From the NCBI GenBank assembly GCA_014381925.1, contig JACNKR010000037.1:35767-99766 (forward strand): a stretch of 64,000 bases of DNA, in the 5' to 3' direction. The position numbers and the translations under genes were made by a program. Positions 7,528 to 58,900 of this stretch are shown in pieces; the stretch's first letter is position 1, and every line of letters starts with the position of its first letter. The notes under the pieces were generated by a model that was not told the origin of the DNA, ran no database searches, and saw nothing but the letters and a program-made list of their open reading frames with translations. Origin of the DNA: Fidelibacterota bacterium (GTDB lineage: Bacteria > Fidelibacterota > Marinisomatia > SCGC-AAA003-L08 > GCA-2689995).

Positions 7528-10500
7528 ATGTATATATCAAAAGTACACTTACAAGGGTTTAAATCATTTCTAAATAAAACGGATTTACAATTTGGGCATG
7601 GAATAACATGTGTTGTTGGGCCGAATGGATGTGGAAAAACCAATATTGTAGATTCTATTCGCTGGATATTAGGTGAACAGAAATCATCTATTTTGCGATC
7701 TAATAAAATGGAAGATGTGATATTTAACGGAACCCGGAAAAGAAAACCTGTTAGTTTCTGCGAAGCATCAATAATGTTACATAATGAAGGGCGTTTGCCT
7801 GTAGAATATACAGATATTGAGATTACCCGTCGATTATTTAGAAGTGGTGAAAGTGAATATTTGATGAATAAAGTTCCATGTAGATTAAAAGATATTAATA
7901 ATTTATTTATGGATACAGGGATGGGTACAGGGGCTTACTCTGTAATTGAGTTAAAAATGATTGAGTCAATATTATCTCAAAATACCGCTGAACGAAAGCA
8001 TTTAATTGAAGAAGCTGCTGGAATAAATCAATATAAACAGCAACGCCAACAAACATTTAGAAAATTAAGTGCTACAAAATCTGATTTAGAACGCGTTAAT
8101 GATATTTTAATTGAATTAGAAAAAAATGTTAAAGGGTTAGCATTACAATTAAAGCGGTTTGAACGACATGCAAAACTAACTGAACAATTTAAAAATAAAT
8201 CCATACTTATGGCTGGATATAATTATAACTTATTAAACTCACAAATAAGCCCTGTTAGTGAAGAAATGGATTTTAAGAAAAATACATATTCAAAATTATC
8301 TAGTCAAATGAATATGGATGAAGAATTAGAAAAAAATACTCAAAAGAGATATGATGATGCTCGGTCTGAAATGGAAACTTTAGAATTAAACTTGGCTGAT
8401 ACAGTTAAAAAAATAACAGAAAAAAATAGAAATATTATTATTTGGACTGAAAATAATAAATCAAATGAAGGGAGAATACAACAAAACTTAGATGATTCTG
8501 TACAAATGGAAAACCAACAAAATATTTTAAATGAGCAAATTAAAGATTTAAATAATTCCTTAAAAGAAATAGAACCTGAAATTCTTAATCGAAAAAAATC
8601 ATATGAAAATGAAGTACAAGTATATGAAGAATTAAAAACGGAGTCTGAACAACAAATAAAAAAATATAAAATCAAGCAATCCGAGTTTGATGCACATTTA
8701 AATATGATTTTTCAAGAAGAAACAACATTTAAATTAAATGAAAATTCATTGGAATCTCATGAAGAATTAGTTAAAACACTTCAGACTAGAAGAACTGAAA
8801 TGAAATCACGAGAAATGAATAGTTTAGAAAGTATTTCAGATCTAAAGAAATTGATTAGTAAAAAAGAAGAGTCTGCAAATAATCAATTAATTGAAATTGA
8901 AAATTTAAAAAATACTCAATTAAAAATAGATTCTGATTTAATTTCTGTTATTGATTCAATTTCTGAAATTAATTTAGAAAATGAACGATTAAATTCTAAG
9001 GTTAATTTATTTGAAAGTATTTTGAAATCAAGAGGAGATAGTGCTTCGGGATTAAATTTCATTGAAAAAAATAAAGAAAAATTTAATGGATTATTAGGTG
9101 TATTGTCAGATTTAATCGAAATTCCTGAAGAATATCATAAAGCTTCAGAGGTAATATTAGGTGATTTAAAAAATGCAGTAATTGTAGAGAATTTCGAAAT
9201 TGCAAAATTAATTATTGATGAATTGAAAAAAAATGACGGTGGTGCACTCACATTAATTTCACTTGATAAAATACCAATTATTAAATCTAAAATAAAAAGT
9301 GATCTCGTAAAACAAATTAAATCACAAAAGAAATTGAATGATTTAGTAAATCACTTATTTAATGATGTTTTGATCGTTGAATCAATTTCGGAAATAAATA
9401 AAAAATCCCCATTAATTGTAACAAAAGATGGTGATTTCTTAAAAAATGGATATGAGATTAAAAGTTCTTCATTGAAAAATAAAGTCTCTGTGCTCGGTAA
9501 GAAAAAAGAGATAAGTGAAATGAAAGGGAAGATTAATCTAAATTTAAGTCATCTTAAAAGCCAAGAAAGTAAAAGACAAGATTTAGAATCTCAATTAAAT
9601 GATTTTAATATAAAAGTTTCTTCATTAGAAAAATCTTTTGAAATCATAGTTTCTGATAAACAAAAATTAGAAATTGAACTTTCAGGTAAAGTGGCGGGAC
9701 AAATTCATTTACAAGAAATTAAAAATGAAAATAAAAAAGAAATTGATAAATCAATAATTCAAATAGAAACATTAAAATTAAAGATTGAAAAATGCAAAGA
9801 TGAGGTGAAAAAATTAATTGAGGAAAAAGTACTATTAAAAGAAAAAATTGAAAAAATTACTAAACAAACAGAAAGTTATCGACAAAAAACTGTAAACCAA
9901 CAAGAATTAACACAGCAGAAACAATTATTTTTATTAGAGTCAGAGAAAGAAAAAAACACAATTGAGTTTAGATTAAATTCAATTGAGGATCGGATTGCAG
10001 AAAACCAGCGAAGGATTGACCGTATAAAAAGTATTAATATTCAATTAAGAAAAACGAATGATGATTTAGATAAAAAACTAAGTCTTGAAAATGAGTTAAA
10101 AAGAGAGTTATTAGAAGAACAAGAAAAATTAGGAGCTCAAAAAGGTAAAACCGATAAAGAATATAATGATGCTTATCAGGAATTAAAAGAACTACAACAA
10201 AATATGAGAAGCCATCATAAATTAAAAGAAGATCGAATTTTTGAAATTCAAGAAATGGAATTAAAAATTTCAAATTTAAAAAATGAACAATTAATTGTTA
10301 CGGATAAAATTTATGAAAAATTTGGAGTTACAATTGAAGAACTTGAAACAATTGATGTTTCTGAAATAAATAATGAAAATTTATTAGAAGAAATTTTATC
10401 GTTAGAAAAATCACTTGAACGAATAGGCCCAATAAATATGGCAATTCAAGATGAATATGAAAAAGAAAGTGAACGATTAACTTTTTTACAAGATCAAGTT

Positions 10501-18474: not shown

Positions 18475-20454
18475 ATGGAAATGAAATTTGACTTAAAATT
18501 ATTGAAATATGTATTTTTTGTTTTATTGGGAATTGGAAACGCATTTGATTTTGAATTAATAAATAATTCGGTAATCATTAGTGGAGAAAATTTTTATTCA
18601 GAAAACCCCTTTTTTGGTGGAATGAATAAACCTAAAGTTCAATGGGTGGACTGGAATAGCGATGGTTTGATTGATTTATTTCTATTAGATGAAGATAAAA
18701 AACTGAAATATTTTCAAAATATTGGAACAGAAAACAATGCTCAGTTTGAATTAAATCAAACATCTTTTCAACATATAAATTGTGAGAACTGGTTTTACTT
18801 TGCAGATTTTGATAATGATTCTGAATTCGAATTAATGGCTCAATCAACACAAAACTCAATGCAAATATCTTATTATGAAAATAATAATGGAGAATTAGAA
18901 GTTTTAACATTAGGCATTTTAGATGGAAATGGAGCATTGGTATTAGGAGAGTCCGTTGTAACCCCAACTTTTACCGATATTGATAACGATGGTGATTTAG
19001 ATTTTTTTACGGGTAGTGTATTGGGTACTGTAAGTTACTATGAAAATATTGGATTCAATAATAATATTCCACTTTTTGAATTTCAAACAAATGATTGGCA
19101 AGATATATTAATAATCGGGCAATCTCAAACTGAAAATCGTCATGGTGCAAATGCAATTAATTTTATAGATTTAGATGGAGATATGGATTTAGATTTGGCC
19201 TGGGGCGATTCATATAATCAAAGTTTATATATTGTTTGGAATATTGGTACTGTTGAAAATCCAATAATGGATAATATTAATATTACAAATCAATTTCCAC
19301 CTCAACCCTATTCTATTGAAACTTCAGGACAAAATATGGCTTCTTTTGTAGATATTGATACTGATGGTGATATAGATTTATTTATAAGCGTGTTAGGTGG
19401 AAGTTTTGGAATTCAGAATAAAAATAATTTTTATCATTTTGAAAATGTCGGAAATAATAATAACCCATTATTTGTTGAAATAGGACGAAATTATTTAAAT
19501 ATGCTCGATTTCGAAGATAAAACTTCGCCTGAATTTGCAGATTTAGATGGAGATGGAGATGATGATTTAATTATTGGAAACTCGTTTGAAACAATTTCAT
19601 TTCCATGGAATGCACGATTGAAATATTTAGAAAATATTGGAAGTCAAGAGAACCCTGAATATGAAATTATTGACAGTGCATTTTTAGGGAGTTTAATAGG
19701 AAAGGAATTAACTCCTGTTTTTATTGACATTGATAATGATGGAGATTTAGACTTTTTTTCAGGTGAAACTTACGGTGGGATATTATTTTCTGAAAATATA
19801 GGGAATCAATATAATTTTGAATTTTCCAATATAATTGCATTTGATGGAATTGATGTTGGGTATAATTCTGTACCTGAGTTTGTAGATATTGATAATGACA
19901 ATGATTTTGATTTAATAATAGGAAATTCAGAAGGGAATTTATTTTTTTATGAAAATATTGGAAGTTCATTTAATTCTGAATATATCTTAGTCTCAGAAAA
20001 TTATTTAGATATTAATGTTTTAAATTATTCATCACCTGATTTTTTTGATATTGACAATGATGGCGATTTTGATTTAATGATTGGTTCGGGTGATTTAGGA
20101 TTAAATTATTATGAAAATATTGGCTCTATAAATATCCCATTATTTGTAGAAATTGAAAATACTCTCGATTTGGGTACTAATTTAAAACCAGCACTAAAAC
20201 AGTCGTCTTATGGAATAATTGATGCTTATGTTGGAAATACTTTAGGTGGAATTTATCATTTACAGTTTTCATCCTGTGGTGGTGGAGATTTAAATAATGA
20301 TTTATTAATTGATATTAATGATATTATTTTAGTTGTTAATATTATTCTTGGGAATGAAACCAGTGAAGATCTTATATGTAATGCCGATGTGAATTCTGAT
20401 GAATTAGTGAATATAATTGATATTCTTAAAATTTTATCTTCAATATTATTTTAA
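18475..20454 (+). CDS. secreted FG-GAP/VCBS-repeat protein with a C-terminal dockerin-like module
   Basis: Signal peptide; at least 8 repeats of F.DIDNDGDLDFF.G type; last 60 aa are GDLNNDLLIDINDIILVVNIIL...ADVNSDELVNIIDILKIL. Confidence 0.8.
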   Translation: MEMKFDLKLLKYVFFVLLGIGNAFDFELINNSVIISGENFYSENPFFGGMNKPKVQWVDWNSDGLIDLFLLDEDKKLKYFQNIGTENNAQFELNQTSFQHINCENWFYFADFDNDSEFELMAQSTQNSMQISYYENNNGELEVLTLGILDGNGALVLGESVVTPTFTDIDNDGDLDFFTGSVLGTVSYYENIGFNNNIPLFEFQTNDWQDILIIGQSQTENRHGANAINFIDLDGDMDLDLAWGDSYNQSLYIVWNIGTVENPIMDNINITNQFPPQPYSIETSGQNMASFVDIDTDGDIDLFISVLGGSFGIQNKNNFYHFENVGNNNNPLFVEIGRNYLNMLDFEDKTSPEFADLDGDGDDDLIIGNSFETISFPWNARLKYLENIGSQENPEYEIIDSAFLGSLIGKELTPVFIDIDNDGDLDFFSGETYGGILFSENIGNQYNFEFSNIIAFDGIDVGYNSVPEFVDIDNDNDFDLIIGNSEGNLFFYENIGSSFNSEYILVSENYLDINVLNYSSPDFFDIDNDGDFDLMIGSGDLGLNYYENIGSINIPLFVEIENTLDLGTNLKPALKQSSYGIIDAYVGNTLGGIYHLQFSSCGGGDLNNDLLIDINDIILVVNIILGNETSEDLICNADVNSDELVNIIDILKILSSILF

Positions 20455-38797: not shown

Positions 38798-41700
38798 ATG
38801 AATTATCCAAATATCCGTCGAGAATCCGTATTAAATCCGCTTTTAGAATTAGTAAAGGATTGTATAAAATCAAACCATACTGGAATAATTGAAATATATG
38901 GAAATGCGGGTTGTGGAAAAACAACAATTCTTAATCAAATTGAAGAATATTTTTCTTATTATGCTATTTTCCCACACATTAATCAAACAATTGGATATGA
39001 GCAATTTTCATTAATTTCATATTTATCTTCTTTAAATAATAATCATTTCAAACCTAAATTAGATGAAAATGAAATAATTTCACATCTTAGTGAACTTTTA
39101 CTTCAATCACGAAATTTTCAAAAAGATATTCAAATATTTATAATAGATGATTCTCATCTATTGTCTAAGGAGGTTATAAACCAATTAAAACTTATATTTA
39201 ATAAGTATAGTGGATTTTCAAATTACTTTTTAATTTTATCTGGTAGAGAGAAAAAACTAAATAATAATAGTATTGAGATTGGTCGTTTTTCAAAAAATGA
39301 GATTGATCATATTTTCCAATTATTTCTTAATAAAAAATGGGTAGAATTAAATACAGATATTTATGATTGGATTATAAAATTAACGGATGCTTGGCCTTTT
39401 TATTTAATTCTATTTTTAGAATGGGGGCTGAAGATTGGCACTCTCTCTAAAAAAACACAAAAACCTTTAGACCAAATTATATCAAGGCAATTGCCCGAGA
39501 ATTTACTTCAATCTGTAAATCAAAGATATAATCTTTCACTATTATCTGTCAAACAAAAAGAGATTATTGAATATATTTCATTCTCAACAAAACAGTTATC
39601 ATTTTTAGAATTAGCATCGTTAATTTCAATTCCAATAGGTGAGATTAATAATAATTGTAATTATCTTGAAAATGAGGGATGGATTAATGAAAATAATCAA
39701 TTATACCACCCCTTAATTGGAGAAATGGTAATTGGAAATTGTGAAAATATTCAAAATATAAATGAAAATTTTATTTTAAAGTTAGAATTACCTTTACACG
39801 AACAAGCATCGCACATTTTGAAATTAAATAAATTATCAAAAAACCATAAGTTGATTCTTGAAGAATATGGCGATGAAATTGAGTCAGAAGGACTTTTTTA
39901 TTCTGCGATAAAAACATTTGAAAAGATAGATCCAAAAAAACAATTAAATCATATTCAGTTTAAAATTGCAATAAATTTATATCGAATTGGAAAAAATAAT
40001 CAAAGTAAGGAAATACTTGAAAATTTAATTACGGATAATCGTTTTAATAATAGTTATAAGGTTTATTATTATTTAGGTCGAATATATTTTCTTCAAAATA
40101 AGCTTGATGATGTATTTAAAATTATAAATTTAGGATTAAAAAATGTCTTAGATGATTTTTCAGTTTATAAATTAAAATCTTTGATGATTGAATTATTGGT
40201 CATTAATGGTTCAAAAGATGAAGTCATCAAATTATTAAATGAAATACAGCCAACAGAAAAATCGACAATTGACGAAAAGCTAGAATATTATAATCTTATT
40301 GCACATATTCATCAGCATGCAATTGTAGAAATTGATGTGGTTTATATAATGGAAACAGGTATTGAGCTTGCTGAGAAACACAATAAAAATAGTAATTTAG
40401 TTAATTTAAATTTAGGTTTAATGAGGCATTATGCATTGACTGATGATGTGGAAAATGCATTGTTTTATGCAGAAAAAGCATATTCTCTAGCGAAAGCATG
40501 TTTTGAATTAAGATTAGTTGCGAGTATTTTATTAGAACGAGGTCAAATTTATGCTCGAAATGGCAAAGCTGGTATTGGAATAAAAGATTTAGAAACTGCA
40601 ATTGAGATGAATAAAAGTTTTGAAAATATAATAAATACATTAAATCCAATATCTCAAATGGCTGGGGTGTATGAAATGTTAAATCATATACCAAAATCTG
40701 ACAAAACTCATTCAAATTTATCTGTTCTATTAAAGGAAAATGATAACTTTGATTCTTTACTTGGTTTAGGGATTTATTATCAACTCAGACAAAATTATAG
40801 TAAATCAATACATATTTATAATGCACTTATAATTAAAATTGACAAAATTAATAATGAAAATATTAAAGCTTTTTTATTGGGAGTATTTTATCCAACTATT
40901 TTTAGTAAAGATGAAAAACAAGCAGATAAGAACTTTAATCAAGCTGTAAATGATTTAATTCGTTTAAAAACAATTTATTATCTTCATGCACCCTTTCATG
41001 CAAAGGGTTGGGTATTAATAAATAGTTCGCAAGAAAATAATCTCTCATCACATTTGCAAAAATGGGTTGAAATTATAAAAGATGAAAATGAAATCCCATT
41101 AGATTTTTATCAACCATTAATGATTATTAATGAAATAACCCAAGGTGAAAAACAAAATGCACTTCATCGCTTACGACGATTTGAATCTCGATTTGAAGGT
41201 GCAAATATTCTTCAATATAAAAATCTTTATGATTGGTTAATTAAAGAAAATACATATCCAAAATTTACGAACAGATATAAAGTTATTTCAGAGCTTATAA
41301 ATTCAATAACACATGTTGATAAAAAATTAAATAAAATATCAGTTAATAAATCAGATGAATTTTTAGACTTTTTAATAGAATGGCAGAGATGTATTCATGT
41401 AGAGAAAGATTTTGAAAAATCAATTTTAAATCGATTTGTTCAGAATGAAAGTCAAAAAGATTGTTTATTGGATACTTTAATTGTGTGGGATATATCATTG
41501 TCCAAATTTGAAGATGATATAGCATCTCATTCAAAATTAATTTCAATCCAATTATTAGGAAAGCCAAATGTGAGTATAGAAAAAGTATTAATAAATAAAG
41601 ACCTCAGAGGCGTAAATAAACCAATTGAATTGTTTATTTATCTCATATTAAAAGGATGGAGATTTAATAATCAATTATCAAAAGAACGAATTGCTTCTCA

Positions 41701-42151
41701 ATTATGGGACGATGATATAGAAGATATTGATAGTAAAGTCAAAAAATTAAATATTACACTTTCACGATTAAGGAAATCTTTAAATAATAAAGATAATAGC
41801 TATATATTAAATAAACTTAACTCTATTGGGTTTAATTGGGACTATTCTAATTATCGGTTAGATATAGATGACTTTTATCAATCATATAATCTTGGTAAAG
41901 ATGCATTAAATAATAAAGAATTGGATAAAGGAATTTCATATTTAAAACATGCAATAAATGTATATGGTGGATATTTGTGCAATAAATTAAAATCTGAATG
42001 GATTGATGAAATAAGAGCAACATTTCATAATTATTACTTAGATTGTTTAATAATATTATCTGAAAATTTATCAGATAAAGAAAAACAAAAATTATTATAT
42101 TCTGAACAATTAAAATTCCCTGACGAAGAAATAGAAGAGTATTTTGATTAA
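38798..42151 (+). CDS. STAND-type ATPase with TPR-like middle region and C-terminal SARP-like wHTH + BTAD transcriptional activator domain
   Basis: Walker A GNAGCGKTT (about nt 38900) and Walker B IFIIDDSHLL. Long helical-repeat region. From nt 41540: ISIQLLGKP...ERIASQLWDDD...LNITLSRLRKSL (OmpR/SARP wHTH), then YRLDIDDF...AINVYGGYL......W..EIR (BTAD). Confidence 0.75.
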   Translation: MNYPNIRRESVLNPLLELVKDCIKSNHTGIIEIYGNAGCGKTTILNQIEEYFSYYAIFPHINQTIGYEQFSLISYLSSLNNNHFKPKLDENEIISHLSELLLQSRNFQKDIQIFIIDDSHLLSKEVINQLKLIFNKYSGFSNYFLILSGREKKLNNNSIEIGRFSKNEIDHIFQLFLNKKWVELNTDIYDWIIKLTDAWPFYLILFLEWGLKIGTLSKKTQKPLDQIISRQLPENLLQSVNQRYNLSLLSVKQKEIIEYISFSTKQLSFLELASLISIPIGEINNNCNYLENEGWINENNQLYHPLIGEMVIGNCENIQNINENFILKLELPLHEQASHILKLNKLSKNHKLILEEYGDEIESEGLFYSAIKTFEKIDPKKQLNHIQFKIAINLYRIGKNNQSKEILENLITDNRFNNSYKVYYYLGRIYFLQNKLDDVFKIINLGLKNVLDDFSVYKLKSLMIELLVINGSKDEVIKLLNEIQPTEKSTIDEKLEYYNLIAHIHQHAIVEIDVVYIMETGIELAEKHNKNSNLVNLNLGLMRHYALTDDVENALFYAEKAYSLAKACFELRLVASILLERGQIYARNGKAGIGIKDLETAIEMNKSFENIINTLNPISQMAGVYEMLNHIPKSDKTHSNLSVLLKENDNFDSLLGLGIYYQLRQNYSKSIHIYNALIIKIDKINNENIKAFLLGVFYPTIFSKDEKQADKNFNQAVNDLIRLKTIYYLHAPFHAKGWVLINSSQENNLSSHLQKWVEIIKDENEIPLDFYQPLMIINEITQGEKQNALHRLRRFESRFEGANILQYKNLYDWLIKENTYPKFTNRYKVISELINSITHVDKKLNKISVNKSDEFLDFLIEWQRCIHVEKDFEKSILNRFVQNESQKDCLLDTLIVWDISLSKFEDDIASHSKLISIQLLGKPNVSIEKVLINKDLRGVNKPIELFIYLILKGWRFNNQLSKERIASQLWDDDIEDIDSKVKKLNITLSRLRKSLNNKDNSYILNKLNSIGFNWDYSNYRLDIDDFYQSYNLGKDALNNKELDKGISYLKHAINVYGGYLCNKLKSEWIDEIRATFHNYYLDCLIILSENLSDKEKQKLLYSEQLKFPDEEIEEYFD

Positions 42152-42170
42152 AATAATTAGATCAATTTGT

Positions 42171-42250
42171 GCGGACTTTTAGGTCACTCCTATGGAGTTC
42201 ATGTTTATTTTTAGGTTAATGTGTTATTAATAGTGCACCTCTCCGAGGTT
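42171..42250. repeat. 80-nt element A, copy 1 of 3
   Basis: GCGGACTTTTAGGTCACTCCTATGGAGTTCATGTTTATTTTTAGGTTAATGTGTTATTAATAG..CACCTCTCCGAGGTT. It differs from copies 2 and 3 at 3 positions each, all in the last 20 nt. Confidence 0.95.
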
Positions 42251-42312
42251 AAAATCAAATTTAAAATTATATTACGTTGTTTGTAATAATAGAATATTGA
42301 GTATATGATTTA

Positions 42313-42361
42313 ATTCACAATTCATATTTTATAATTCAAAATTCATATTTCATAATTGTAA
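42313..42361. repeat. 7-bp-period heptad array (7 units, ATTCAnA type)
   Basis: ATTCACA ATTCATA TTTTATA ATTCAAA ATTCATA TTTCATA ATTGTAA. Confidence 0.85.
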
Positions 42362-42495
42362 GTTTTTATACTCCTTTGATATTAAGAAAAATATAGATGA
42401 GAAAAAAATTAATGCTGTTATTAAATATTAGTAGAAGTGACGCATGCGTCGCCACTACAAAATAAATTAATCGCTCATAAACCTCCTGTTTTTTT

Positions 42496-42523
42496 ATTCA
42501 AAATTCATATTTCATAATTATAA
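42496..42523. repeat. heptad array (4 units); identical copy at 42800-42827
   Basis: ATTCAAA ATTCATA TTTCATA ATTATAA. Confidence 0.85.
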
Positions 42524-42591
42524 GTTTTTATACTCCAGAGGAGTAATCTATTTGTAATAATAAATCAAGATAAATAATTAGCTCTATGGGA

Positions 42592-42671
42592 GCGGACTTT
42601 TAGGTCACTCCTATGGAGTTCATGTTTATTTTTAGGTTAATGTGTTATTAATAGGTCACCTCTCCGAAGTT
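42592..42671. repeat. 80-nt element A, copy 2 of 3
   Basis: Direct comparison with 42171-42250 and 42896-42975. Confidence 0.95.
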
Positions 42672-42895
42672 TGATGAAAACCACAAATAAATGAAGTAAT
42701 CGCTTGTTCAATAATATTAAAAATTATATAAAATGTAATAACGACGCATGCGTCGCCACTACAAAATAAATTAATCGCTCATAAACCTCCTGTTTTTTTA
42801 TTCAAAATTCATATTTCATAATTATAAGTTTTTATACTCCAGAGGAGTAATCTATTTGTAATAATAAATCAAGATAAATAATTAGCTCTATGGGA

Positions 42896-42975
42896 GCGGA
42901 CTTTTAGGTCACTCCTATGGAGTTCATGTTTATTTTTAGGTTAATGTGTTATTAATAGGTTACCTCTCCGAGGTT
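42896..42975. repeat. 80-nt element A, copy 3 of 3
   Basis: Direct comparison. Together with the following 76 nt (to 43051) it repeats 42171-42326 with about 5 mismatches. Confidence 0.95.
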
Positions 42976-43037
42976 AAAATCAAATTTAAAATTATATTAC
43001 TTTGTCTGTAATAATAGAATATTGAGTATATGATTTA

Positions 43038-43072
43038 ATTCACAATTCATAATTCAAAATTCACAATTCATA
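43038..43072. repeat. heptad array (5 perfect-period units)
   Basis: ATTCACA ATTCATA ATTCAAA ATTCACA ATTCATA. Confidence 0.9.
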
Positions 43073-43308
43073 ATTACTATTTTGTTCTACGGTTTTCAGC
43101 ATCCAAAATTACAATTATTCCCTTATTTTACCCCGATTAACAAAAAAAATAAAAAAATTTTACTTTTTTGTAATTAATTTTAAAATCGATGTTTTAATAT
43201 AGTGTACCATCATCTTTTATTAAAAATAATTTTATAAAAACACTAAATATCACCCATTTTCACCCCGAATTCATTTATGTTGAAAGGTTTTTTTTGTATA
43301 TTATAACT

Positions 43309-43530
43309 ATGAATTTTACGACTCTTGATAATGACATTTTTTTCGTTTGCAGAAATTGTGAATATTTTCGGTTTATCACAACCGAAAACAAGGCACATAT
43401 TTATTGCTCGCGATGTGGAAATGATATGGAGAACAAGTGTCGTAAATGTGGTTTAGAATATAATAATCCATTCTCGAAATTTTGTGAGAGGTGTGGAGAG
43501 AATATAACAAAAGTTAGAATTACAGATTAA
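43309..43530 (+). CDS. double zinc-ribbon protein, unknown function
   Basis: Four CxxC pairs (CRNC, CSRC, CRKC, CERC) in 73 aa. ATG at 43309 is preferred over the TTG at 43294. Confidence 0.6.
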   Translation: MNFTTLDNDIFFVCRNCEYFRFITTENKAHIYCSRCGNDMENKCRKCGLEYNNPFSKFCERCGENITKVRITD

Positions 43531-43618
43531 TTTTTAACTCTACCTCATGGGGAAAAATTATTTTCGGTTTAAAATTAATAACCTGTAATGATGACACAAA
43601 CAATAAAGGGAAAAAATA

Positions 43619-44203
43619 ATGAAATCAATAAATAATATAATAACATTAATATTTTTATTACTATTTATCAATTGTGCTGGGAAAATTGGGTTAAGCAGAT
43701 CAAATATTTCTGATATGCCAGAGTGGTATAAAAATTATAGAGAATATAAATATTATGACCCAGATAGTCGAATATATGGAAAAGGATTTGCTGAAGAATT
43801 ATTTCTAAATCAGGCTATGGATAATGCATCAAGTAAAGCAATATCAAATTTAGCTCAGCAAATAGGCACTTACTGTAAGAGAACAGATATTTTAGAAAGT
43901 GTTTCTAATAATTCTAAAAGAGTCAATAGTGGTGAAAGAAAAAAGAGGAATAATAAAAATACTTCTTCTCGTGAAGCTTCAAATTATTCTAATCAATTAA
44001 TTGAAAATATTGCTCAGGAAGTTTTGAGAAGACCTATTGAAGAAATAACCGATACTTGGGAAAAAGAGAAAGATGGTGTAACAATTTATAGATCTTGGAC
44101 TATTTGGTCGGTTTCTGTTAATTCAGTAGAACAATCATTATTAGAAAGAATGAATGAAGACCCTGAGTTTTATGATGCAATTGAAAAATTATATTTAAAA
44201 TAA
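43619..44203 (+). CDS. lipoprotein, LPP20/FlgP-like (weak)
   Basis: Lipobox LLFINC; the PEW motif shortly after the Cys; then A...A...A..LA..I pattern typical of LPP20-type lipoproteins. Confidence 0.45.
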   Translation: MKSINNIITLIFLLLFINCAGKIGLSRSNISDMPEWYKNYREYKYYDPDSRIYGKGFAEELFLNQAMDNASSKAISNLAQQIGTYCKRTDILESVSNNSKRVNSGERKKRNNKNTSSREASNYSNQLIENIAQEVLRRPIEEITDTWEKEKDGVTIYRSWTIWSVSVNSVEQSLLERMNEDPEFYDAIEKLYLK

Positions 44204-45673
44204 ATGAAAAATATTAATTTTATATACTTTTTTTCAATAGGAATTTTGTTTGGACAATCTTGGATTACTATTGGTAATTATGAGACAATTTATGCGCATT
44301 ATTATTTAGGTATAAGTGAACCGAATCTTCCTCAAGCTGAGTCAATAAATAATGCTTTTTCTAATGCTTTAGAAAAAGCAGGTATTGAACAAAGCATGGT
44401 AAATATTGAATCTATTCGGAAAATTAATACAACCACTGGAATAAATAGAAGAATAGATAAGAGAGGAATAACTAATTCGGGACAATTAAAATCAACTACG
44501 GAGAGCGGTATTAATCGTCAATTTTCTTCATCAATTGATAACATAACATTAATGGAAGAATTATATGATGGTGATATAGGGTACACATTAATTAGAATAC
44601 CCAAAGAAGGATATAATGATTTTGACTTTTTTTCGATGAATAGGGAATTTAATATAAGTAAGAAAATAAACGGAATTAAAAAATCCGCAATGGTACCAGG
44701 GTTAGGGTCATATTATCAGGAAAAACCAGCTAGAGGTACTCTTTTTTTATTAGGTTCAATTGCTTCTGCAGGGATGATTTTATCATCTTATTCTAAATAT
44801 AATAAAGCCATAGATCAAATGAATACATCAATTCTTAGTGATGATTTATTACGGTTTTATGATGAATCCATTATTCAATCAAATCGATTTAGTATTAGCT
44901 TATTATCTTTTAGTACAATATATATAATGAATTTATTAGATCCATTTCTTTTCCCTGGTGAGTTTAAGGACTATTATTATCGAAAAAAGCAAAAACCTAG
45001 AAATGATTTAAAAATTATAAAAAAATCTAATTGGAATTATAATGATTTGGGAGGTTTTGGTTTTGTTGCTCCTAATCGTATTCCAATAGAAGCAAGTTCA
45101 AATTCAAAGTTTGAAAATAGTGATGAAGCATTAAAGCTATCAGGGGGTAATATTTATTTTTCTGTATTTTTTGAAAATATAAAAGGTATGATTTATTATG
45201 CAGAACACATAACAGGTAATGATCATCTTTTATTTAAAGAAGGTGGTATAGGATATTATAAGAATTATATTAATTCCATTTTTGGATTATACCCATTGAT
45301 AGGTGCAAGCTTAGGTTATTGTTCAGTTTCACAAGATTGGGACGATAAGGATGAATTTTTAACTGAAAACTATGATAAGGGGTTTGGTTTTAAAAGTAAA
45401 AATATAAGTAGCTATTATTTACAAGCAAAAATTGAGGCTGGGTTGCAAAAATGGTTTAATCAATATAATATCTTTTTAAATTTTGGTTATCATTTACCCG
45501 CTAGAATGAATAATTTTAATATAAAAGTATATGATGGAACAGAAATTGAAGGAATGAAAAATGCGGTAACAAAAAGAATAACACCATCTGAACTTCCATA
45601 TTCAAATATTAAAATTGGGGGGAAATATATATCATTAGGCATTTCGTATAATTTTAAAAGTGAAGCAAAATAA
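44204..45673 (+). CDS. envelope protein: LPP20-like N-domain, two TM helices after an S..VPGLGSYY motif, beta-rich C-terminal domain
   Basis: Signal peptide; SAMVPGLGSYYQEKPARGTLFLLGS motif plus hydrophobic helices; C-terminal alternating pattern ending GISYNF. The start abuts the previous stop. Confidence 0.45.
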   Translation: MKNINFIYFFSIGILFGQSWITIGNYETIYAHYYLGISEPNLPQAESINNAFSNALEKAGIEQSMVNIESIRKINTTTGINRRIDKRGITNSGQLKSTTESGINRQFSSSIDNITLMEELYDGDIGYTLIRIPKEGYNDFDFFSMNREFNISKKINGIKKSAMVPGLGSYYQEKPARGTLFLLGSIASAGMILSSYSKYNKAIDQMNTSILSDDLLRFYDESIIQSNRFSISLLSFSTIYIMNLLDPFLFPGEFKDYYYRKKQKPRNDLKIIKKSNWNYNDLGGFGFVAPNRIPIEASSNSKFENSDEALKLSGGNIYFSVFFENIKGMIYYAEHITGNDHLLFKEGGIGYYKNYINSIFGLYPLIGASLGYCSVSQDWDDKDEFLTENYDKGFGFKSKNISSYYLQAKIEAGLQKWFNQYNIFLNFGYHLPARMNNFNIKVYDGTEIEGMKNAVTKRITPSELPYSNIKIGGKYISLGISYNFKSEAK

Positions 45674-45693
45674 TTAGAGAAAAGGAATAGTAA

Positions 45694-48060
45694 ATGAATA
45701 ACAGTAAAAGGTTTAAAACAGTATTATTATTAATTGTATCAATTTTTATAATTTCATGTTTAAGTGAGCCAACTCCACCAGAAACGGTTGGTATTATTTC
45801 AGGTACAATTTATAATAGTGAAACAATGGAAGTTATACAGGGTGTTACCATTATAACTGAACCAGCTGTTTCTTCAATTATAACTGGTGCAGATGGAAAG
45901 TTTGAAATAATAGATGTCCCTGAAGATATTTATGAACTTTCAGCAAGTCATCCAATATATGAAACTAAATCAACTACGGTTCAGGTGTTAGCCGGAAGAA
46001 GTGTTTTTGTTGATCTGCAATTAAATCCGTTAAGTACAGAAATGAGTATTTCTGAAGAGGCGCTAAATTTTGGTACATCAACAGATAATTTGACTTTCTA
46101 TATTCAAAATATAGGCATTGGTACAATGAATTGGTCATTATCCAAAAACCAATCTTGGTTGACTGTTTCCCCTACAAGCGGGACTACAATTACTGAGACG
46201 GATATTGTCAATGTAAGTGTAAATCGCTCTGATTATAGTCCAGGAAATTATACAGATGTAATTTCTCTTACTTCTAATTCTAATGCAATGAGTGTAAGTG
46301 TAATAATGACTGTTGCTGATACAACAGGTCCACAACTTTCAGTATCTCCTTCAAGTTTTGATTTTGGTACAGAAATTACACAAAAGAGCTTTGAAATATC
46401 AAATACGGGTGTTGGTTCTTTAACATGGAATGCATCTACTTCTGAAAACTGGATTGATATTGAAACAAATTCAGGTACAATATTGAGTGGTAATAGTAAC
46501 ATAAATATTTCTATAATTAGAACAAATCTTGCCGTGGGTACATATAGTGGGAATATATTATTTACTTCAAATGGTGGCAATCAGACCGTAAATGTAAATG
46601 TTACCATACCAAATGAACCTATTATTTCAGTTTCTTCATCCAATTTAGATTTTGGAAGTACAACAAATACAATGACTTTTGATGTAAGTAATTCAGGGGT
46701 AAATGATTTAAATTGGACAATTTCAGATAATCAGGATTGGATTACCACAACTCCCAATTCGGGTACTAATTTAGGTACGGTAAATGTAACCATTTCTAGA
46801 GATGGATTTTCTCCCGGTGATTATAGCGGAACCGTGACTGTAAGCTCTAATAATGGTTCTCAATCTGTAAGTATTAATATGAATGTTCCTGCAGAACAAC
46901 CACCTACTGCTGTTGTACTTACTGACCCAAGCAATATTACAACAAACTCTATGACCCTTGCTTGGTCTCGAAATTATGACTCTGATTTTGCTGCATACCG
47001 TTTATATTATAGTACATCGCCTGCTGTAACTGAAAATTCATCATTAGCGACAACCATTACTGATAATAATACAAATTCTTATACTGTTACTGGCTTAAGC
47101 AACAGTACCACATATTATTTTAAGGTGTATGTTATGGATACGGCGCAAATGACTACAGGTTCAAATGTGGTTTCTGCTTCAACATCTGCAATATTAGGTA
47201 ATTGGGTATTAACAGAAAATATCCCAAATGTTACTTTTAGTGCTGTTTGGTTTAACTCTGAAAATGATGGATACGCTGTTGGAGAAAGTAGTGTCATTTA
47301 TGATGCTAAAATTTATCATTGGGGTGGCTCAAATTGGGTAGAAGAAGTTGTTCATGATGATGCCCTAGATTTATATGATGTTCGCTTTATTGATGCAAAT
47401 AATGGTTATGCTGTGGGTAACAGTGGCACGTTTCTTTATTATAATGGTGTATCCTGGTCGGAATTCAATTCACCTACATATTCTTCTATCGAAGCCGTAT
47501 TTCCATTGTCTAACGATAATATCTGGACTTATGCAAGTGATGATATTTACCATTGGGATGGCAGTGAATGGACTTCAACTCATTTGGATATATCTTATAT
47601 TCGAGATATTTATTTTATTAACGAAAATGACGGGTGGGTTGTTGATCAGTATGGTAAAATGTTTCACTACAATGGCATTGGCTGGGCATTCCATAGTAAC
47701 GTAGAAAATTATTACGTCAGCAATGGTGAATTATACTTTTTGAATTCTTCCGAAGGATGGTATATAAATAATTACAATAACACTGGTAATGCTTACAATT
47801 TCGTTTATCATTATGATGGCAGTAGTTGGACCCGGTATGAGGATAATGATTACCCAATTTATAGGGTAACTAGAATTCAAGAAATATCTGCATCCAATAT
47901 ATGGGCAGTAGGATATGGTGGTTTAATTTTTAATTTTGATGGCGAACGGTGGAATTCTGTTACAAGTCCTACATCAAACGATTTAATTGGTATTTTTATG
48001 CTTAATGCGTCTGATGGCTGGGCGGTAGGTGAAAATGGTGTAATATTGAGGTATCATTGA
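45694..48060 (+). CDS. large surface lipoprotein: CarboxypepD_reg-like domain, 3 BACON/Ig-like repeats, FN3, C-terminal beta-propeller
   Basis: Lipobox IISC. GTIYNSET...GKFEIIDVPEDIYEL. Three repeats of about 95 aa (FG...F.I.N.G...L.W.......W...P.SGT). FN3 with YYFKVYV. Six or more blades of the GWAVG..G.I..Y.G..W type. Confidence 0.7.
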   Translation: MNNSKRFKTVLLLIVSIFIISCLSEPTPPETVGIISGTIYNSETMEVIQGVTIITEPAVSSIITGADGKFEIIDVPEDIYELSASHPIYETKSTTVQVLAGRSVFVDLQLNPLSTEMSISEEALNFGTSTDNLTFYIQNIGIGTMNWSLSKNQSWLTVSPTSGTTITETDIVNVSVNRSDYSPGNYTDVISLTSNSNAMSVSVIMTVADTTGPQLSVSPSSFDFGTEITQKSFEISNTGVGSLTWNASTSENWIDIETNSGTILSGNSNINISIIRTNLAVGTYSGNILFTSNGGNQTVNVNVTIPNEPIISVSSSNLDFGSTTNTMTFDVSNSGVNDLNWTISDNQDWITTTPNSGTNLGTVNVTISRDGFSPGDYSGTVTVSSNNGSQSVSINMNVPAEQPPTAVVLTDPSNITTNSMTLAWSRNYDSDFAAYRLYYSTSPAVTENSSLATTITDNNTNSYTVTGLSNSTTYYFKVYVMDTAQMTTGSNVVSASTSAILGNWVLTENIPNVTFSAVWFNSENDGYAVGESSVIYDAKIYHWGGSNWVEEVVHDDALDLYDVRFIDANNGYAVGNSGTFLYYNGVSWSEFNSPTYSSIEAVFPLSNDNIWTYASDDIYHWDGSEWTSTHLDISYIRDIYFINENDGWVVDQYGKMFHYNGIGWAFHSNVENYYVSNGELYFLNSSEGWYINNYNNTGNAYNFVYHYDGSSWTRYEDNDYPIYRVTRIQEISASNIWAVGYGGLIFNFDGERWNSVTSPTSNDLIGIFMLNASDGWAVGENGVILRYH

Positions 48061-49597: not shown

Positions 49598-50347
49598 TTA
49601 CATCAAAACCTTTCCCTGTGAGAATAAATTTATAAAACCCAATTCATTTACTAATTTTAATAAATCGTCGTCTTCAATTCTTGGACTAAAATGGGTTAAA
49701 TAAATATGTTTTGCGTTTGCTTTTTTACCCAGTTTAATTGCTTGAGATAAAGTGGTATGTTTTGTTTCCAATGCAAGTTCAGTATGATTATCTGTAAATG
49801 TTGCTTCATGGATAAAATGGTCAGTATTTTTTGAAAACTTAATAATTTCATCTAATGGTAATGTATCGGTAATAAAAACAATTGATTGATTTTCATCTTG
49901 AATGCGATAACCCCAACATGGTACTTTATGTTCTAATTGAATTGATTTAATTTCAATATCATTTTCGAGTAAAAAATTATCCGTATCTTCAATCGATAAT
50001 ATTTCTAATTCAAATTTTAAATTAACTCCTTGATGTTTCAAACTTGTTAATAAGAATTCTTTTAAATTTGAAGGACCATAAATAATTAATTTATGTTCAA
50101 TCCTTAAAATATTTCGGTAAAATATAAGTGGTATTAAACCAGCGGTATGGTCAGGGTGCATGTGAGTAATAAAAATATATTTTAATCGTTTCCATTTATA
50201 GCCGTGTGAATTCCAATTTAAATAGGTACCTTCTCCACAATCGAACATAATATCATATCGTTCTTCAGAAATAATAAGAGAAGTTGTACCTCTATTTTGA
50301 GTTGGAATTCCCGCCGAACATCCTAGTTTTTGAAATGATTTTAACAT
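49598..50347 (-). CDS. MBL-fold metallo-hydrolase, RNase Z-like
   Basis: FDCGEGT and HMHPDHTAG (HxHxDH) motifs; C-terminal LTHFS. Confidence 0.65.
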   Translation of the reverse strand: MLKSFQKLGCSAGIPTQNRGTTSLIISEERYDIMFDCGEGTYLNWNSHGYKWKRLKYIFITHMHPDHTAGLIPLIFYRNILRIEHKLIIYGPSNLKEFLLTSLKHQGVNLKFELEILSIEDTDNFLLENDIEIKSIQLEHKVPCWGYRIQDENQSIVFITDTLPLDEIIKFSKNTDHFIHEATFTDNHTELALETKHTTLSQAIKLGKKANAKHIYLTHFSPRIEDDDLLKLVNELGFINLFSQGKVLM

Positions 50348-55924: not shown

Positions 55925-58900
55925 GTGTTCAATAAAAATTATATAATTATTCTTCTATTTTCAATTGCGGTTTCAATTCCTGCATTTCCAGGTAAAATTA
56001 AATTTACTCAATCCACAGGTGACATTTTTTTTGGGTATGTAAAAGGTGATGAGTGGCAAAATTGGCATGAAACTGAAAATGGTTTTACAATTTCAAAAGA
56101 TAATAAAAATAATTGGTATTTTGTCAAATCATATAATGGGGAATCTCCAATATTAACAAACTATCCAGCACATTTGCCATCACCTATAGATATTCAAAAA
56201 CATATAAAACCAGTTCGAAATTTTTCTGTTGATTATCATTTAAATAAAGTAAATATTGAAAATACAAATCGAGAAACATGGTTATTTCCACTATTATTAA
56301 TTGATTTCCCGGATTTACCAGCATCATATTCGGTGGAAACATTTGATGATTTAATGAATGAAAATGGGTATTCAGGGGTTCAGGGACAAACAGGTAGTTT
56401 TAGAGATTATTATTTAGAAATTTCGTATGGACAATTTGATATAGATACAGAAGTTATTGGTTGGTTTACTTCTGCAGAAGAGCATATAAATTATGGTGAT
56501 GATACCCAGGGTAGTTATAATAGTGTGCGAGAAATGATAGGGGATGCTATTGATGAAGCTGAAGAACAAGGTATTGATTGGAGCCAATTTGATAATGATG
56601 GTGATGGTTATGTAGATGGTATAAATATTGTGCATGCAGGGCAAGGAGCAGAAGAAGGAAATGGCTCAAATATTTGGTCGCATAAGTGGAGTTTAGGAAG
56701 TTATACTAGATTTTATGATGGTGTTTGGATTGATGCATATTCAATTAATCCTGAAAAGCAAAATGCAGGGTATTCTGGAATCCCAGGTTTAACACATATT
56801 GGTGTGATTAGCCATGAATTTGGACATGCTCTTGGATTGCCAGATTTATATGATACAGATTATTCCTCTTCTGGAATTGGAACTTGGGGGCTTATGTCAG
56901 GTGGCTCATGGGGAGGAAATGGTTCTTCACCATGGTATCCTTCACATATGTGTGCATGGGCAAAAATTGAATTAGGTTGGATTGAACCAATTGTTTTAGA
57001 TAATGAAATAAGTATAACGATGGATTTAGAAAATGTTGAAGAAAACCCAACCGTAATTAAATTAAATGGTTCGGTGTTAAATAGCCAGTATTTTTTAATT
57101 GAGAATCGTCAACAAATTGGTTCGGATCAAACATTAAAAAACTCAGGATTATTAATTTGGCATATTAATGATTCACAATATGGTAATTCAAATGATGATA
57201 ATAGATTAGTTGATTTAGAACAGGCTGATGGATTATTCCAATTAAACAATGGCTATAATGATGGTGATTTAAGTGATCCATACCCTGGAACAATGAATAT
57301 TACTCGGTTTGCAAATGAAACTATACCTTCATCTCAATATAATAATGGTTCAACTTCTAATATTATTGTAACAGATATAATTGAATCTGATGAAATTATT
57401 ACAGCTACTTTTCAAAATATGCCCAGCTTAGATATTGTAAATATAAATTCAATTGAATTAGATGGTGACGGTGATGGTATTGTTAATCCGAATGAATCGT
57501 TTGCGGTTAGCTTTCAATTTGAAAACCCATCAAATATTTCAATAGAAAATTTAAATATAACTTTATCTTCTATCTCACCTTATATTGTTTTATTTGAAGA
57601 ATTGATTGAAGTTGGATCTATTAATGGAAATTCAAATTCAAATTCAGTAAATATAAATGGATTTATCAATTTGAATTCACCTCCAATAAATATACCAATT
57701 TTAATTGAGTTAACAGGAGACATTGAAGGCGGTACTTTAAGTCAATTTTTAGTGTTTGAAATTGAAGTTTCTTTAAATCAATCAGGTTTTCCATTCCAAG
57801 AAAGTGGTGCTGTAAAATCATCTCCAATTATTATTGATATAGATGGGGATGGAGAAAATGAAATTATTTTTGGTACAATGAGTGGTGATTTGGTGGTATT
57901 AAATTCTGATGGATCTTTTCAAAATGGAAATTGGCCGTACCATGTTGGAGGTCAATTTTGGGCATCTCCCGCTGTTGCAGATATTGATAATGATGGAACA
58001 CTTGAAATTATAATATCTAATCATAATAAAAATATTTATGTTTTTGACCCATTCGGAAATATTGAAATGGAATTTTATACAGACCAGTTTTTAGTGGGAT
58101 CACCCTCAATTGGAAATTTAGATAATGATAATGATTTAGAAATTGTATTTGCCGGTATAGGTCAAACTACAAAACTATATGTAATTAATTCAGATACGAC
58201 TTATGTGAATGGATTCCCAATTGACCTTAATGAAAATGTATTTACAAGCGTAAGTTTATTTGATTTTAATGAAAATAATAAAGATGATATTGTAATTGGT
58301 ACAGATAATGGAAACTTATATTTAATTTATGATAACGGTGAAATTGCAGATTCTTTTCCAATTGAAACGGGAAATGGGATAAAATCAGACCCAATTATTG
58401 CTAATATTGAAGGTGATAATAATCCTGAGATTTTATTTGGAAATGAAGATGGTAATTTTTATTGTTTAAAATCAGATGGAAGTATTCTTTTTCAGATTGA
58501 TGTGGAAAGCCCAATTAGAACTTCCCCTGGAATAATTGAAGATGAATATGGAATAAAAATATTTTTTGGAGATGTAAGTGGATATTTGCATGGAATAACA
58601 CCCGTTGGAAATCCGTTAATTGGGTGGCCTAAATTTTATGATCAAGATATATTGGTTTCCCCAATATTTTCAGATTTAAATAATGATGGAAGTCCAGAAG
58701 TAATAACCTCCAATAAAATAGGTGATTATATCATTTGTGATTTACTAGGAAATCAATTGTTTGCAGAGCAAATTTCAACAGGGATTATTACTGAATCTCA
58801 ACCTACAATTGCAGATATTGATTTAGATGGTGATTTAGAAATATTTATTGGAAATCAAAATGGATTAACAGCATTAGATATTAAATTTTCTGGAGAAATT

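Follow-up and report, generated by a model that had tools for sequence, protein, structure and literature searches.

Between a gene encoding a 1117-residue regulator and a small gene encoding a double-zinc-ribbon protein lies a gene-free block of about 1.1 kb (positions 42152-43293 of the window, by which we mean the whole 64-kb stretch of DNA analysed). The block is 1142 nt long and exceeds every other spacer in the window (the second longest measures 645 nt, the median spacer 12 nt), and it is the window's sole long non-coding repeat. A preliminary description had put spacers as mostly shorter than 120 nt, which holds for a majority only, with 15 of the 46 exceeding that length. The extent of the block and the four classes of repeat listed in that description were all confirmed. 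In particular, element A (80 nt) occurs at 42171, 42592 and 42896 with 2-3 mismatches between copies, and its 33-nt core is found exactly three times in the 64 kb, where shuffled sequences lead one to expect none. A 233-nt segment (42439-42671) is repeated at 42743-42975 with a period of 304 nt and 2 mismatches, and a 156-nt segment (42171-42326) is repeated at 42896-43051 with 5 mismatches, a match that can be extended to 207 nt (42151-42357 versus 42876-43082) at 91%. Finally, a 41-nt segment is present at 42334, 42496 and 42800 with 0-1 mismatches. The block had been placed exactly between the regulator and an envelope gene cluster; the regulator does adjoin it, whereas the zinc-ribbon gene intervenes before the envelope genes (Table 1).

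Table 1. Features of the regulator/zinc-ribbon locus, in window coordinates.
Feature	Positions	Strand	Description
Regulator gene, 1117 aa	38798..42151	+	P-loop NTPase (AAA_22 / NB-ARC-like) N-terminal, TPR central, SARP-type module C-terminal; Pfam
Element A copy 1	42171..42250	+	19 nt past regulator stop codon; small hairpin ACTCC-TAT-GGAGT, then T-rich run
Linker B copy 1	42251..42310	+	AT-rich; has sigma-70-like TTGTAA-17-TATGAT
Heptamer array 1	42311..42357	+	6.7 copies of AATTCAN, alternatively two 21-nt units; TRF periods 7 and 21, pattern search
Internally deleted unit remnant	42358..42438	+	TATACTCC fused to tail of truncated A copy
Module D copy 1	42439..42495	.	Palindrome GACGCATGCGTC within hairpin, then ...CTCATAAACCTCCTG + T7
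Heptamer array 2	42495..42536	+	~3 units plus TAAGTTTTTATACTCC; TATACT -10-like (array proper 42495-42522)
Unit 2 long imperfect hairpin	42530..42675	+	5' arm + element A copy 2 (42592-42671); -45.6 kcal/mol, z -5.25
Module D copy 2	42743..42799	.	Minus strand: 13-bp hairpin then T-rich run, terminator-like
Heptamer array 3	42799..42840	+	Array plus TATACTCC (array proper 42799-42826)
Unit 3 long imperfect hairpin	42834..42979	+	5' arm + element A copy 3 (42896-42975); -50.9 kcal/mol, z -6.69
Linker B copy 2	42976..43036	+	Repeat comparison
Heptamer array 4	43037..43075	+	5.6 copies of AATTCAN; final array before the zinc-ribbon gene's unique leader
Unique upstream region of zinc-ribbon gene	43083..43308	+	Non-repeated; TTTTACCCCGA (43126), TTTTCACCCCGA (43258); 93% identical in L018
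Small double-zinc-ribbon gene, 73 aa	43309..43530	+	ATG at 43309; Pfam DZR; between block and envelope gene cluster

The claim that no open reading frame is conserved between the repeat copies was borne out. Reading frames that lie wholly within the block encode only 21-31 residues, and the sole frame common to copies (21 residues; 42221-42286 in copy 1 and 42946-43011 in copy 3) was rejected as a gene, as three of its four differences are non-synonymous and it is not preceded by a ribosome-binding site. Remnants of tRNA or tmRNA were not found in the block. Reading of the sequence also led us to reject a CRISPR array, the repeats being 80-233 nt long and their layout not that of repeats and spacers, and a replication origin was rejected because the cumulative GC skew has no turn at the block.

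In the basic unit of the block, element A (a hairpin, then a T-rich run) is joined by an AT-rich linker to an array of AATTCAN heptamers, after which comes TATACT; units measure ~258-304 nt. The sequences between the conserved parts, previously described as unrelated to each other, proved to be pieces of these larger units when the arrangements in other strains were compared. A contig (L013) from the same metagenome as L018, a contig of a sister strain, retains the undeleted form of 42358-42438, in which a truncated A (GGACTATTAGATTACTCC) is followed by the same TTTGATATTAAG... sequence. Module D is present in the window and in L013 and is missing from the sister-strain contig L018; its minus strand carries a mini-ORF, AGGAGG-N4-ATG AGC GAT TAA.

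These contigs indicate that the block differs in its construction from strain to strain. In L018 a 258-nt unit is repeated cleanly in tandem (2.7 copies at 92% matches), L013 contains a third arrangement, and all three multi-copy haplotypes carry at least three copies of element A in an internal arrangement that is different in each strain. Samples carrying the locus include SRR29139951, ERR13319378 and JGI 3300024344. However, in four contigs assembled from short reads (Logan) the regulator gene is identical, exactly one copy is present and the sequence is 725 nt shorter, as would be expected if the multi-copy structure were a misassembled single-copy region. We consider such an artefact highly improbable. 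Among the single-copy contigs, the SNPs that tell copy 1 from copy 3 are combined in differing mosaics, as is expected from graph shortcuts through the repeat. In addition, other contigs break within element A or at its edge (L005 runs only 49 nt past the stop codon, and the first base of L021 is that of the third copy), and the two JGI contigs L013 and L018, which are independent, also have three copies, each in an arrangement of its own. The block accounts for short-read assemblies of the organism breaking or collapsing at this position.

A search for the copy number and genomic context of the repeats, as recommended in the preliminary description, was run with a 20-base pattern from the core of element A against 185,579 species-representative genomes (596 Gb) and 241 million metagenome records, including the metagenome of the sister strains. 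Apart from chance matches, the scan returned L018, that is, the same locus. No A core was found away from the locus in these genomes and metagenomes, among which there is no complete genome of the species, and the other matches cover 23-28 nt of the core and are ascribed to chance. In these data the A core was confined to this locus and to strains with a regulator protein of at least 97% identity, so that the dispersed copies named beforehand as grounds for abandoning the finding did not appear. No further copy of element A occurs in the 64-kb window. Phage collections held no similar sequence, and what matched in plasmids was AT-rich noise, 40-60 nt long and limited to a single heptamer array. 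Absence of the block from close relatives had likewise been named as a reason for doubt. Downstream of regulator orthologues that are 89% and 74% identical the DNA is indeed unrelated, but the contigs in question end only 42-270 nt past the gene. In the 74% relative the orthologous stop codon is followed, after 115 nt, by the start of a gene for an IS3-type transposase, and the contig ends inside that gene.

The instability of the site in relatives, as seen from this transposase gene, would favour one of the explanations put forward earlier, the local amplification of a MITE-like element; the 146-nt imperfect palindrome would then be a non-autonomous transposon inserted at this site and multiplied there. 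Like ERIC, Correia and RUP-type elements, the palindrome is ~130-150 nt in size and imperfectly self-complementary over its whole length; when transcribed, such elements may function as terminators or as sites of RNA processing. A genome that has them carries tens to hundreds of dispersed copies, whereas the element described here occupies one locus in everything searched, and its repeat unit is longer than the palindrome and takes in the stop-codon region of the regulator gene. Moreover, the first copy lacks one arm, and no target-site duplication was seen when the junctions were read. Local amplification is thus real, but the amplified unit is without the marks of mobility; we regard the transposon explanation as largely refuted, with only a very small probability of being correct.

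The origin of the block as a local tandem array of ~258-304-nt units is, by contrast with the transposon explanation, well supported. The unit boundary repeats the last bases of the regulator gene (ATTAAAATAATTAGATCAATTTG recurs within the array of L013), and since the boundary includes the stop-codon region, the sequence was duplicated in place and not inserted. In its head-to-tail units, in an arrangement that varies among close strains and in the breakage or collapse of short-read assemblies, the array resembles bacterial intergenic minisatellites (VNTRs). As in those, copies are more similar within a strain than between strains, which points to exchange between copies. What sets the array apart from minisatellites is that its unit is composite (a hairpin, a linker and a heptamer microsatellite) and lies inside a conserved two-gene module, beside a DNA-binding regulator.

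The regulator itself has a P-loop NTPase at its N terminus and a predicted SARP-type module at approximately residues 915-1117, with a winged helix-turn-helix (wHTH) at ~957-1004 followed by a BTAD domain. In a search with the C-terminal fragment, Trans_reg_C (E 7e-4) preceded BTAD (E 0.03), which is the order seen in SARPs, both matches falling under the Pfam cut-offs. A profile of the C-terminal domain, however, matched AfsR (8hvr, 8k60, 8jke) and EmbR (2fez) over the wHTH plus BTAD with E ~1e-11. The C-terminal fragment has 95 distant homologues. A sample of ten of these included short proteins, which have the canonical Trans_reg_C plus BTAD make-up, and three proteins of ~1100 residues, two of which have a C-terminal BTAD above the Pfam cut-off. 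By these matches the regulator has the OmpR-type winged helix followed by BTAD that marks the SARP family, although its module is C-terminal and not, as in the family definition, N-terminal. Indeed, the large AfsR-type regulators contain the same three kinds of domain (a P-loop STAND-like NTPase, TPRs and wHTH plus BTAD), in the order SARP, NTPase, TPR as opposed to NTPase, TPR, SARP here; the present regulator also differs from them in being paired with a small double-zinc-ribbon gene. PADLOC and NCBIfam returned nothing meaningful as to a defence system for the regulator or its neighbours.

SARPs recognise direct repeats of heptamers, separated by spacers of 4-15 nt, that generally overlap the -35 element, and the number of repeats differs between sites (PMC10972967). 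The block contains four AATTCAN arrays of 3-6.7 copies each, spread over 0.9 kb, with a 7-nt period and a 21-nt super-period (TRF), and the 41-nt segment starts with such an array. Of 14 near-matches to AATTCANAATTCAT in the 64-kb window, 11 fall within the block, and 2.25 would be expected for the whole window. Every third heptamer is 21 nt from the next, which amounts to a 14-nt spacer, inside the published range; the classical 11-nt unit is absent. Because SARP modules bind repeats of this kind, we infer that the heptamer arrays are probably the operators of the adjacent regulator. A multi-operator control region, one of three candidate explanations in the preliminary description, is accordingly the best supported of the three, on the strength of the four arrays and the adjoining SARP-type regulator.

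Compared with the operators of the Streptomyces SARPs AfsR, ActII-ORF4, DnrI and PimR, the arrays are alike in consisting of 7-nt direct repeats upstream of a putative target and in adjoining a gene for a wHTH plus BTAD regulator. They differ in that the heptamers are contiguous (7-nt period, 21-nt super-period) and not arranged in 11-nt units, so that only the super-period fits two helical turns, unlike the classical 11-nt spacing. The motif here is AT-rich (AATTCAN, as opposed to TCGAGNN), four arrays are packed into 0.9 kb, and the host is an uncultured bacterium of 28% GC with type IX secretion substrates and not an actinomycete. Furthermore, the SARP module is C-terminal here, and the operator role of the arrays is a prediction from sequence. 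With respect to promoters, the last clear heptamer of the internal units is followed 13 nt further on by TATACT. Promoter-like hexamers as a class are not enriched in the AT-rich block (19 found versus 15.7 expected from shuffles); the Bacteroidetes-type -7 box (TANNTTTG) is not enriched in the window and within the block occurs on the minus strand only. (Note that the last heptamer array is 233 nt upstream of the zinc-ribbon ATG, and that another promoter may lie nearer to that ATG.)

Element A and the sequence upstream of it form a 146-nt imperfect hairpin in the internal units, with z scores of -5.25, -6.69, -2.96 and -4.28 relative to shuffled sequences in four copies. Element A copy 1 is without the 5' arm of this hairpin and folds no better than shuffled sequence (z -0.5). 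A scan for terminator consensus features flagged ACTCC-TAT-GGAGT plus TCATGTTTAT in all three A copies; with 5 bp in copy 1 the stem is weak for a terminator, it measures 13 + 4 bp in the internal units, and the U-run is broken up. Element A probably terminates the regulator gene. A promoter-like TATACT ahead of a hairpin and T-rich run is compatible with a small transcript, and a family of tandem sRNA genes had been suggested for the block; a heptamer/TATACT promoter would drive a ~90-150-nt RNA with an AU-rich 5' part, a strong hairpin (13 + 4 bp apical stem) and a U-rich tail, yielding two or three near-identical sRNAs under the control of the regulator. Indeed, every internal unit has a TATACT shortly before its hairpin, the hairpin plus T-run is terminator-like by the scan, and in unit 2 the plus strand folds better than the minus strand (-45.6 versus -32.9 kcal/mol), because of G-U pairs. 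However, stable folding is expected of any inverted repeat, transcribed or not, and copy 1 lacks the promoter module as well as the 5' arm. Searching Rfam 15 gave no match in the block, either with the whole window at gathering thresholds or with the block at E up to 10; the best scores of the block were ~21 bits, against thresholds of 50-60, and came from eukaryotic snoRNA and miRNA models, and the sole match in the window was a tRNA-Ser at 20568. In a covariation analysis of four sequences, and hence of low power, not one of the 54 pairs in the long hairpin showed a change in both partners, and 8 of them are disrupted in copies from sister strains. Nor was a homologue of element A found beside distant homologues of the regulator. 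We therefore consider tandem sRNA genes unlikely. A fuller version, in which hairpin sRNA genes (~90-150 nt) with regulator-dependent heptamer promoters form a circuit with the regulator and the zinc-ribbon gene, and in which unequal recombination makes sRNA dosage variable between strains, strikes us as somewhat more unlikely still.

The broken pairs bear equally on whether the repeats are maintained. The preliminary description took their pattern to argue for selection or gene conversion. Divergence between strains is 4-7% in the block and 7.3% at four-fold sites of a neighbouring gene; given this neutral-rate divergence and the substitutions that break the long hairpin, we see no sign of selection keeping the extra copies, and that part of the claim is unsupported. 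Recent duplication and deletion, together with exchange between copies, would account for the pattern. These observations raise the possibility that the array is a neutral minisatellite, in which slippage or unequal recombination in an AT-rich spacer has generated extra copies that do nothing, and in which at most an ancestral single copy (A, B and heptamers) matters. Consistent with such neutrality are the different arrangement in every strain, the absence of compensatory changes, the lack of the block downstream of the 89% and 74% orthologues, the existence of single-copy short-read contigs and the near-identity of the window's two internal units (2 differences in 233 positions), from which it follows that their duplication is very recent. 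Against it, all three multi-copy haplotypes carry at least three A copies despite their differing arrangements, and the duplicated content is just what one would expect of a control region, namely a hairpin and its T-rich run together with heptamer arrays beside a SARP-type regulator. Neutrality, moreover, concerns the extra copies only and entails the same origin of the block as the explanation that we prefer. We regard it as possible though doubtful.

The explanation that we prefer, to which we give roughly even credence, is that the block is an in-place, strain-variable tandem duplication of the control region between the regulator and zinc-ribbon genes, with the heptamers as operators, so that a terminator-plus-operator/promoter cassette has been multiplied. 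According to this explanation, unequal recombination or replication slippage would have repeatedly duplicated, deleted and exchanged copies of what was a short control region. Element A, past the regulator stop codon, would end the regulator transcript, and the regulator would bind the heptamer arrays. With the control region multiplied three to four times, putative terminator/insulator hairpins would alternate with regulator-dependent promoters, the final promoter would feed the zinc-ribbon operon, and the possession of several copies might be of benefit. If so, the locus would be a natural case of regulatory dosage that differs among strains with the number of terminator/promoter cassettes. 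Should the heptamer arrays be the operators of this permuted SARP-type regulator, they would also provide a binding-site hypothesis for an uncharacterised family of regulators outside the actinomycetes.

Zinc-ribbon homologues lie downstream of distant homologues of the regulator at three loci (L024, L030 and L031), and the regulator and zinc-ribbon genes thus constitute a conserved gene pair. The gap between the two genes is 110-183 nt at distant loci without an insertion and 1157 nt here; given the gap found where nothing has been inserted, the gap here is an expansion. No repeat array precedes the zinc-ribbon gene in L030 or L031, and the arrays are therefore not conserved across the regulator family. 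A comparison of the regions upstream of the zinc-ribbon genes in four lineages gave only weak candidates for a common motif (ATTCA[CT]AA-like and TTTACCCC), four sequences being too few for validation. The pairing of the regulator with the double-zinc-ribbon protein is probably the more useful lead. At the position equivalent to element A, L030 has a canonical terminator hairpin, and in L024 the zinc-ribbon gene is preceded by short tandem arrays and by three clustered ATTCA.

Direct reading of positions 41900–43600, a repeat finder and a base-by-base count reproduced all of the repeats that the preliminary description had listed for the block at 42152–43293, the spacer between the gene for a regulator (38798–42151) and a gene for a small zinc-ribbon protein. 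By the base-by-base count, the two copies of the 233-nt segment have a 304-nt period and differ at 2 positions, those of the 156-nt segment differ at 5 (when extended, they match over 207 nt at 91%), and the three copies of the 41-nt segment carry 0–1 mismatches. The 33-nt core of the 80-nt element A occurs exactly three times in the 64 kb, versus none in shuffled sequences. As had been stated, the block is free of genes; the ORFs entirely within it span 21–31 amino acids. It is the longest spacer of the window (1142 nt; the next is 645 nt) and its only long non-coding repeat, the remaining repeats all lying within genes. The claim that spacers here are mostly under 120 nt agrees with their median of 12 nt, but 15 of the 46 are longer than that. 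The window's only other repeat families are coding repeats (...DIDNDGDLD...) at 18964–20080 and 57968–58847, in two large secreted proteins.

A sensitive self-comparison resolved the block into approximately three head-to-tail units plus insertions and deletions. Its heptamer arrays, long hairpins and module D had not figured in the preliminary description. An array of AATTCAN heptamers opens the 41-nt segment, TAAGTTTTTATACTCC follows each internal heptamer array, and 11 of the window's 14 near-matches to AATTCANAATTCAT fall in the block (whole-window expectation 2.25). In both internal units (units 2 and 3), element A supplies the 3' half of an imperfect hairpin of 146 nt, in which G-U pairs give the plus strand a more stable fold than the minus strand. 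Copy 1 of element A, which starts 19 nt past the regulator stop codon, has no 5' arm, and its fold is no better than that of shuffled sequence (z -0.5). The apical part of A consists of a small palindrome, ACTCC-TAT-GGAGT, followed by TCATGTTTATTTTT, and a consensus scan marked this combination as terminator-like in all three copies. On the minus strand, module D resembles a terminator, with a 13-bp hairpin and then a T-rich tail. That strand (42460–42495 and 42764–42799) also reads AGGAGG, 4 nt, ATG AGC GAT TAA and then the terminator-like hairpin; the AGGAGG is a perfect Shine-Dalgarno sequence, of a kind that few genes of the window have, and the mini-ORF is retained in both copies of L013, the same locus in a sister strain.

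Coordinates of features in the block and of the two-gene module (window positions unless a locus is named)
Feature	Position	Properties
Element A	42171, 42592, 42896	80 nt; copies 2-3 bases apart (base-by-base count)
Heptamer array	42311-42357	TRF periods 7 and 21 nt
Heptamer array	43037-43075	TRF period 7 nt
Long hairpin	42530-42675	-45.6 kcal/mol; z -5.25
Long hairpin	42834-42979	-50.9 kcal/mol; z -6.69
Module D	42439-42495 and 42743-42799	palindrome GACGCATGCGTC
Zinc-ribbon gene	43309-43530	homologue of those in L024, L030 and L031
Module locus L024	247-3633 + 5039-5248	
Module locus L030	253-3561 + 3744-3941	
Module locus L031	131-3655 + 3765-3959	
C-rich motif	43126-43141, 43250-43272; L024 about 5026-5035; L030 about 3712-3722; L031 about 3663-3672	

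The preliminary description had proposed that the block might be a local amplification of a MITE-like element. A 20-base pattern from the core of element A, searched for across 185,579 species-representative genomes and 241 million metagenome records, had one true match, L018, the same locus in another sister strain; four other matches (in Steroidobacteraceae, Fodinibius, Pseudonocardiales and an unrelated metagenome contig) were limited to the 23–28-nt core. As far as available data show, this argues that element A is not a dispersed REP or MITE. A phage collection held nothing resembling the block, and plasmids gave just AT-rich noise across one heptamer array.

Comparison of strains points instead to an origin in place. 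Among 5.8 billion clusters, only three close relatives of the upstream protein were found, at 97%, 89% and 74% identity. In L013 (97%) the array is present in a different arrangement, and in L018, from the same metagenome, it is a clean 258-nt tandem repeat (2.7 copies, 92% matches) without the D module. The apparently unique spacer at 42375–42438 is preceded in L013 by a truncated copy of A, so that the window form reflects a deletion between two ACTCC motifs. Moreover, ATTAAAATAATTAGATCAATTTG, from the 3' end of the regulator gene itself, is repeated inside the L013 array at the unit boundary, as expected of duplication in place and not of a foreign insertion. That the block is a strain-variable tandem duplication made in place and confined to this locus is thus well supported. 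Some short-read contigs with an identical regulator gene have one copy and are exactly 725 nt shorter, being sample-specific mosaics of copy-1 and copy-3 SNPs, and others break within or at the edge of A; we take this pattern to mean that assemblies collapse or break at a genuine repeat, although true single-copy recombinants would look alike. The 89% and 74% orthologues are followed by unrelated sequence up to where their contigs end. In the 74% relative (L006 13470–13622; also L007, L010 and L011) an IS3-type transposase ORF (HTH_Tnp_1, E 3.5e-11) starts 115 nt past the regulator stop codon and is where every contig breaks off. Several lineages show instability at the site downstream of this gene.

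The regulator comprises 1117 amino acids, with an N-terminal P-loop NTPase (AAA_22, weak NB-ARC), central TPR repeats and a last 200 residues that match Trans_reg_C and then BTAD, both under Pfam cut-offs. When the last 253 residues served as query in an exhaustive search, 95 distant homologues were recovered. Among ten sampled, the short ones were canonical Trans_reg_C plus BTAD proteins, and two of the three of the same architecture (~1100 amino acids) had a C-terminal BTAD over the cut-off. A profile of the C-terminal domain matched AfsR and EmbR over the wHTH plus BTAD (E about 1e-11). Taken together, these matches identify the protein as a domain-permuted relative of the large SARP regulators, its wHTH plus BTAD module being C-terminal rather than N-terminal. 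L027, a relative 52% identical over the C-terminal part, has its regulator divided between two overlapping ORFs (597 and 525 amino acids; 4218–7578), which may reflect a frameshift or a pseudogene.

Three loci of distant regulator homologues (L024, L030 and L031; 25–32% identity in the C-terminal domain) likewise have a regulator gene followed by a homologous gene for a 64–69-amino-acid double-zinc-ribbon protein, which the gene caller had missed in L030 and L031. Four lineages therefore share a module of a ~1100-amino-acid NTPase-TPR-SARP protein and then a 64–73-amino-acid double-zinc-ribbon protein with eight conserved Cys (YCSRCG...DP..FC.RCGE). The two genes are separated by 110 nt in L031, by 183 nt in L030, where the gap opens with a canonical terminator hairpin, and by 1157 nt in the window, only 226 nt of which (43083–43308) are unique; the block is thus the expanded internal spacer of a conserved two-gene module. 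The permuted regulator and its zinc-ribbon partner are a more promising lead than the block. A C-rich motif (TTTTACCCCGA, TTTTCACCCCGA, TCACCC) precedes the zinc-ribbon gene in all four lineages, the window having two TCACCC 10 nt apart, about 40–55 nt upstream of the ATG; on these four sequences, it could be the true conserved cis-element. At two distant loci an AAA_14/DUF4143 ATPase gene adjoins the regulator homologue, in L024 (3608–4756, between regulator and zinc-ribbon genes) and in L028 (814–2139, upstream of the regulator).

SARP domains bind heptameric direct repeats with 4–15-nt spacers, usually overlapping the -35 region (PMC10972967). Lying beside a SARP-type gene and upstream of its partner, the 7-nt arrays are most simply read as candidate operators of the regulator, and element A, where the regulator gene ends, as its candidate terminator. 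Duplication of A, the AT-rich linker, the heptamers and TATACT would then yield alternating terminators and regulator-dependent promoters. Of the three ideas put forward earlier, a multi-operator control region is the best supported, and a MITE-like element is not supported. Several points weigh against the operator reading: the period of 7 and 21 nt departs from the classical 11; ahead of the zinc-ribbon gene, short tandem arrays and an ATTCA cluster occur in L024 but in neither L030 nor L031; promoter-like hexamers are at background frequency; and there is no sign that extra copies were selected. Indeed, the block diverges by ~4–7%, versus 7.3% at four-fold sites of the regulator gene between the window and L013, so that there is no sign of constraint. 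The same anatomy fits equally a neutral minisatellite whose extra copies are inert. The suggested tandem sRNA genes are a further candidate, since small hairpin RNAs made from every internal unit would fit this anatomy too; the block matched no Rfam family, whether at gathering thresholds or with E relaxed to 10, and contained no tRNA or tmRNA, and in four complete hairpins none of 54 pairs showed a compensatory change, with 8 broken in the L018 copies. Whatever its function, the block combines a tandem intergenic duplication with SARP-style heptamer repeats, each known in kind.

Genes beyond the zinc-ribbon gene differ even between sister strains, similarity between the window and L018 stopping at 43507. 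The window continues with a lipoprotein-like gene, a 489-aa gene and a BACON/fn3 gene (43619–48060). Where the window has the lipoprotein-like gene, L018 encodes a 1422-amino-acid secreted protein (1181–5449) with a C-terminus that resembles a type IX secretion sorting signal. A metallo-beta-lactamase-fold gene on the minus strand (49598–50347) is labelled Anti-Pycsar Apyc1 in the precomputed contig annotation; a Pfam scan matched it to generic Lactamase_B families only.
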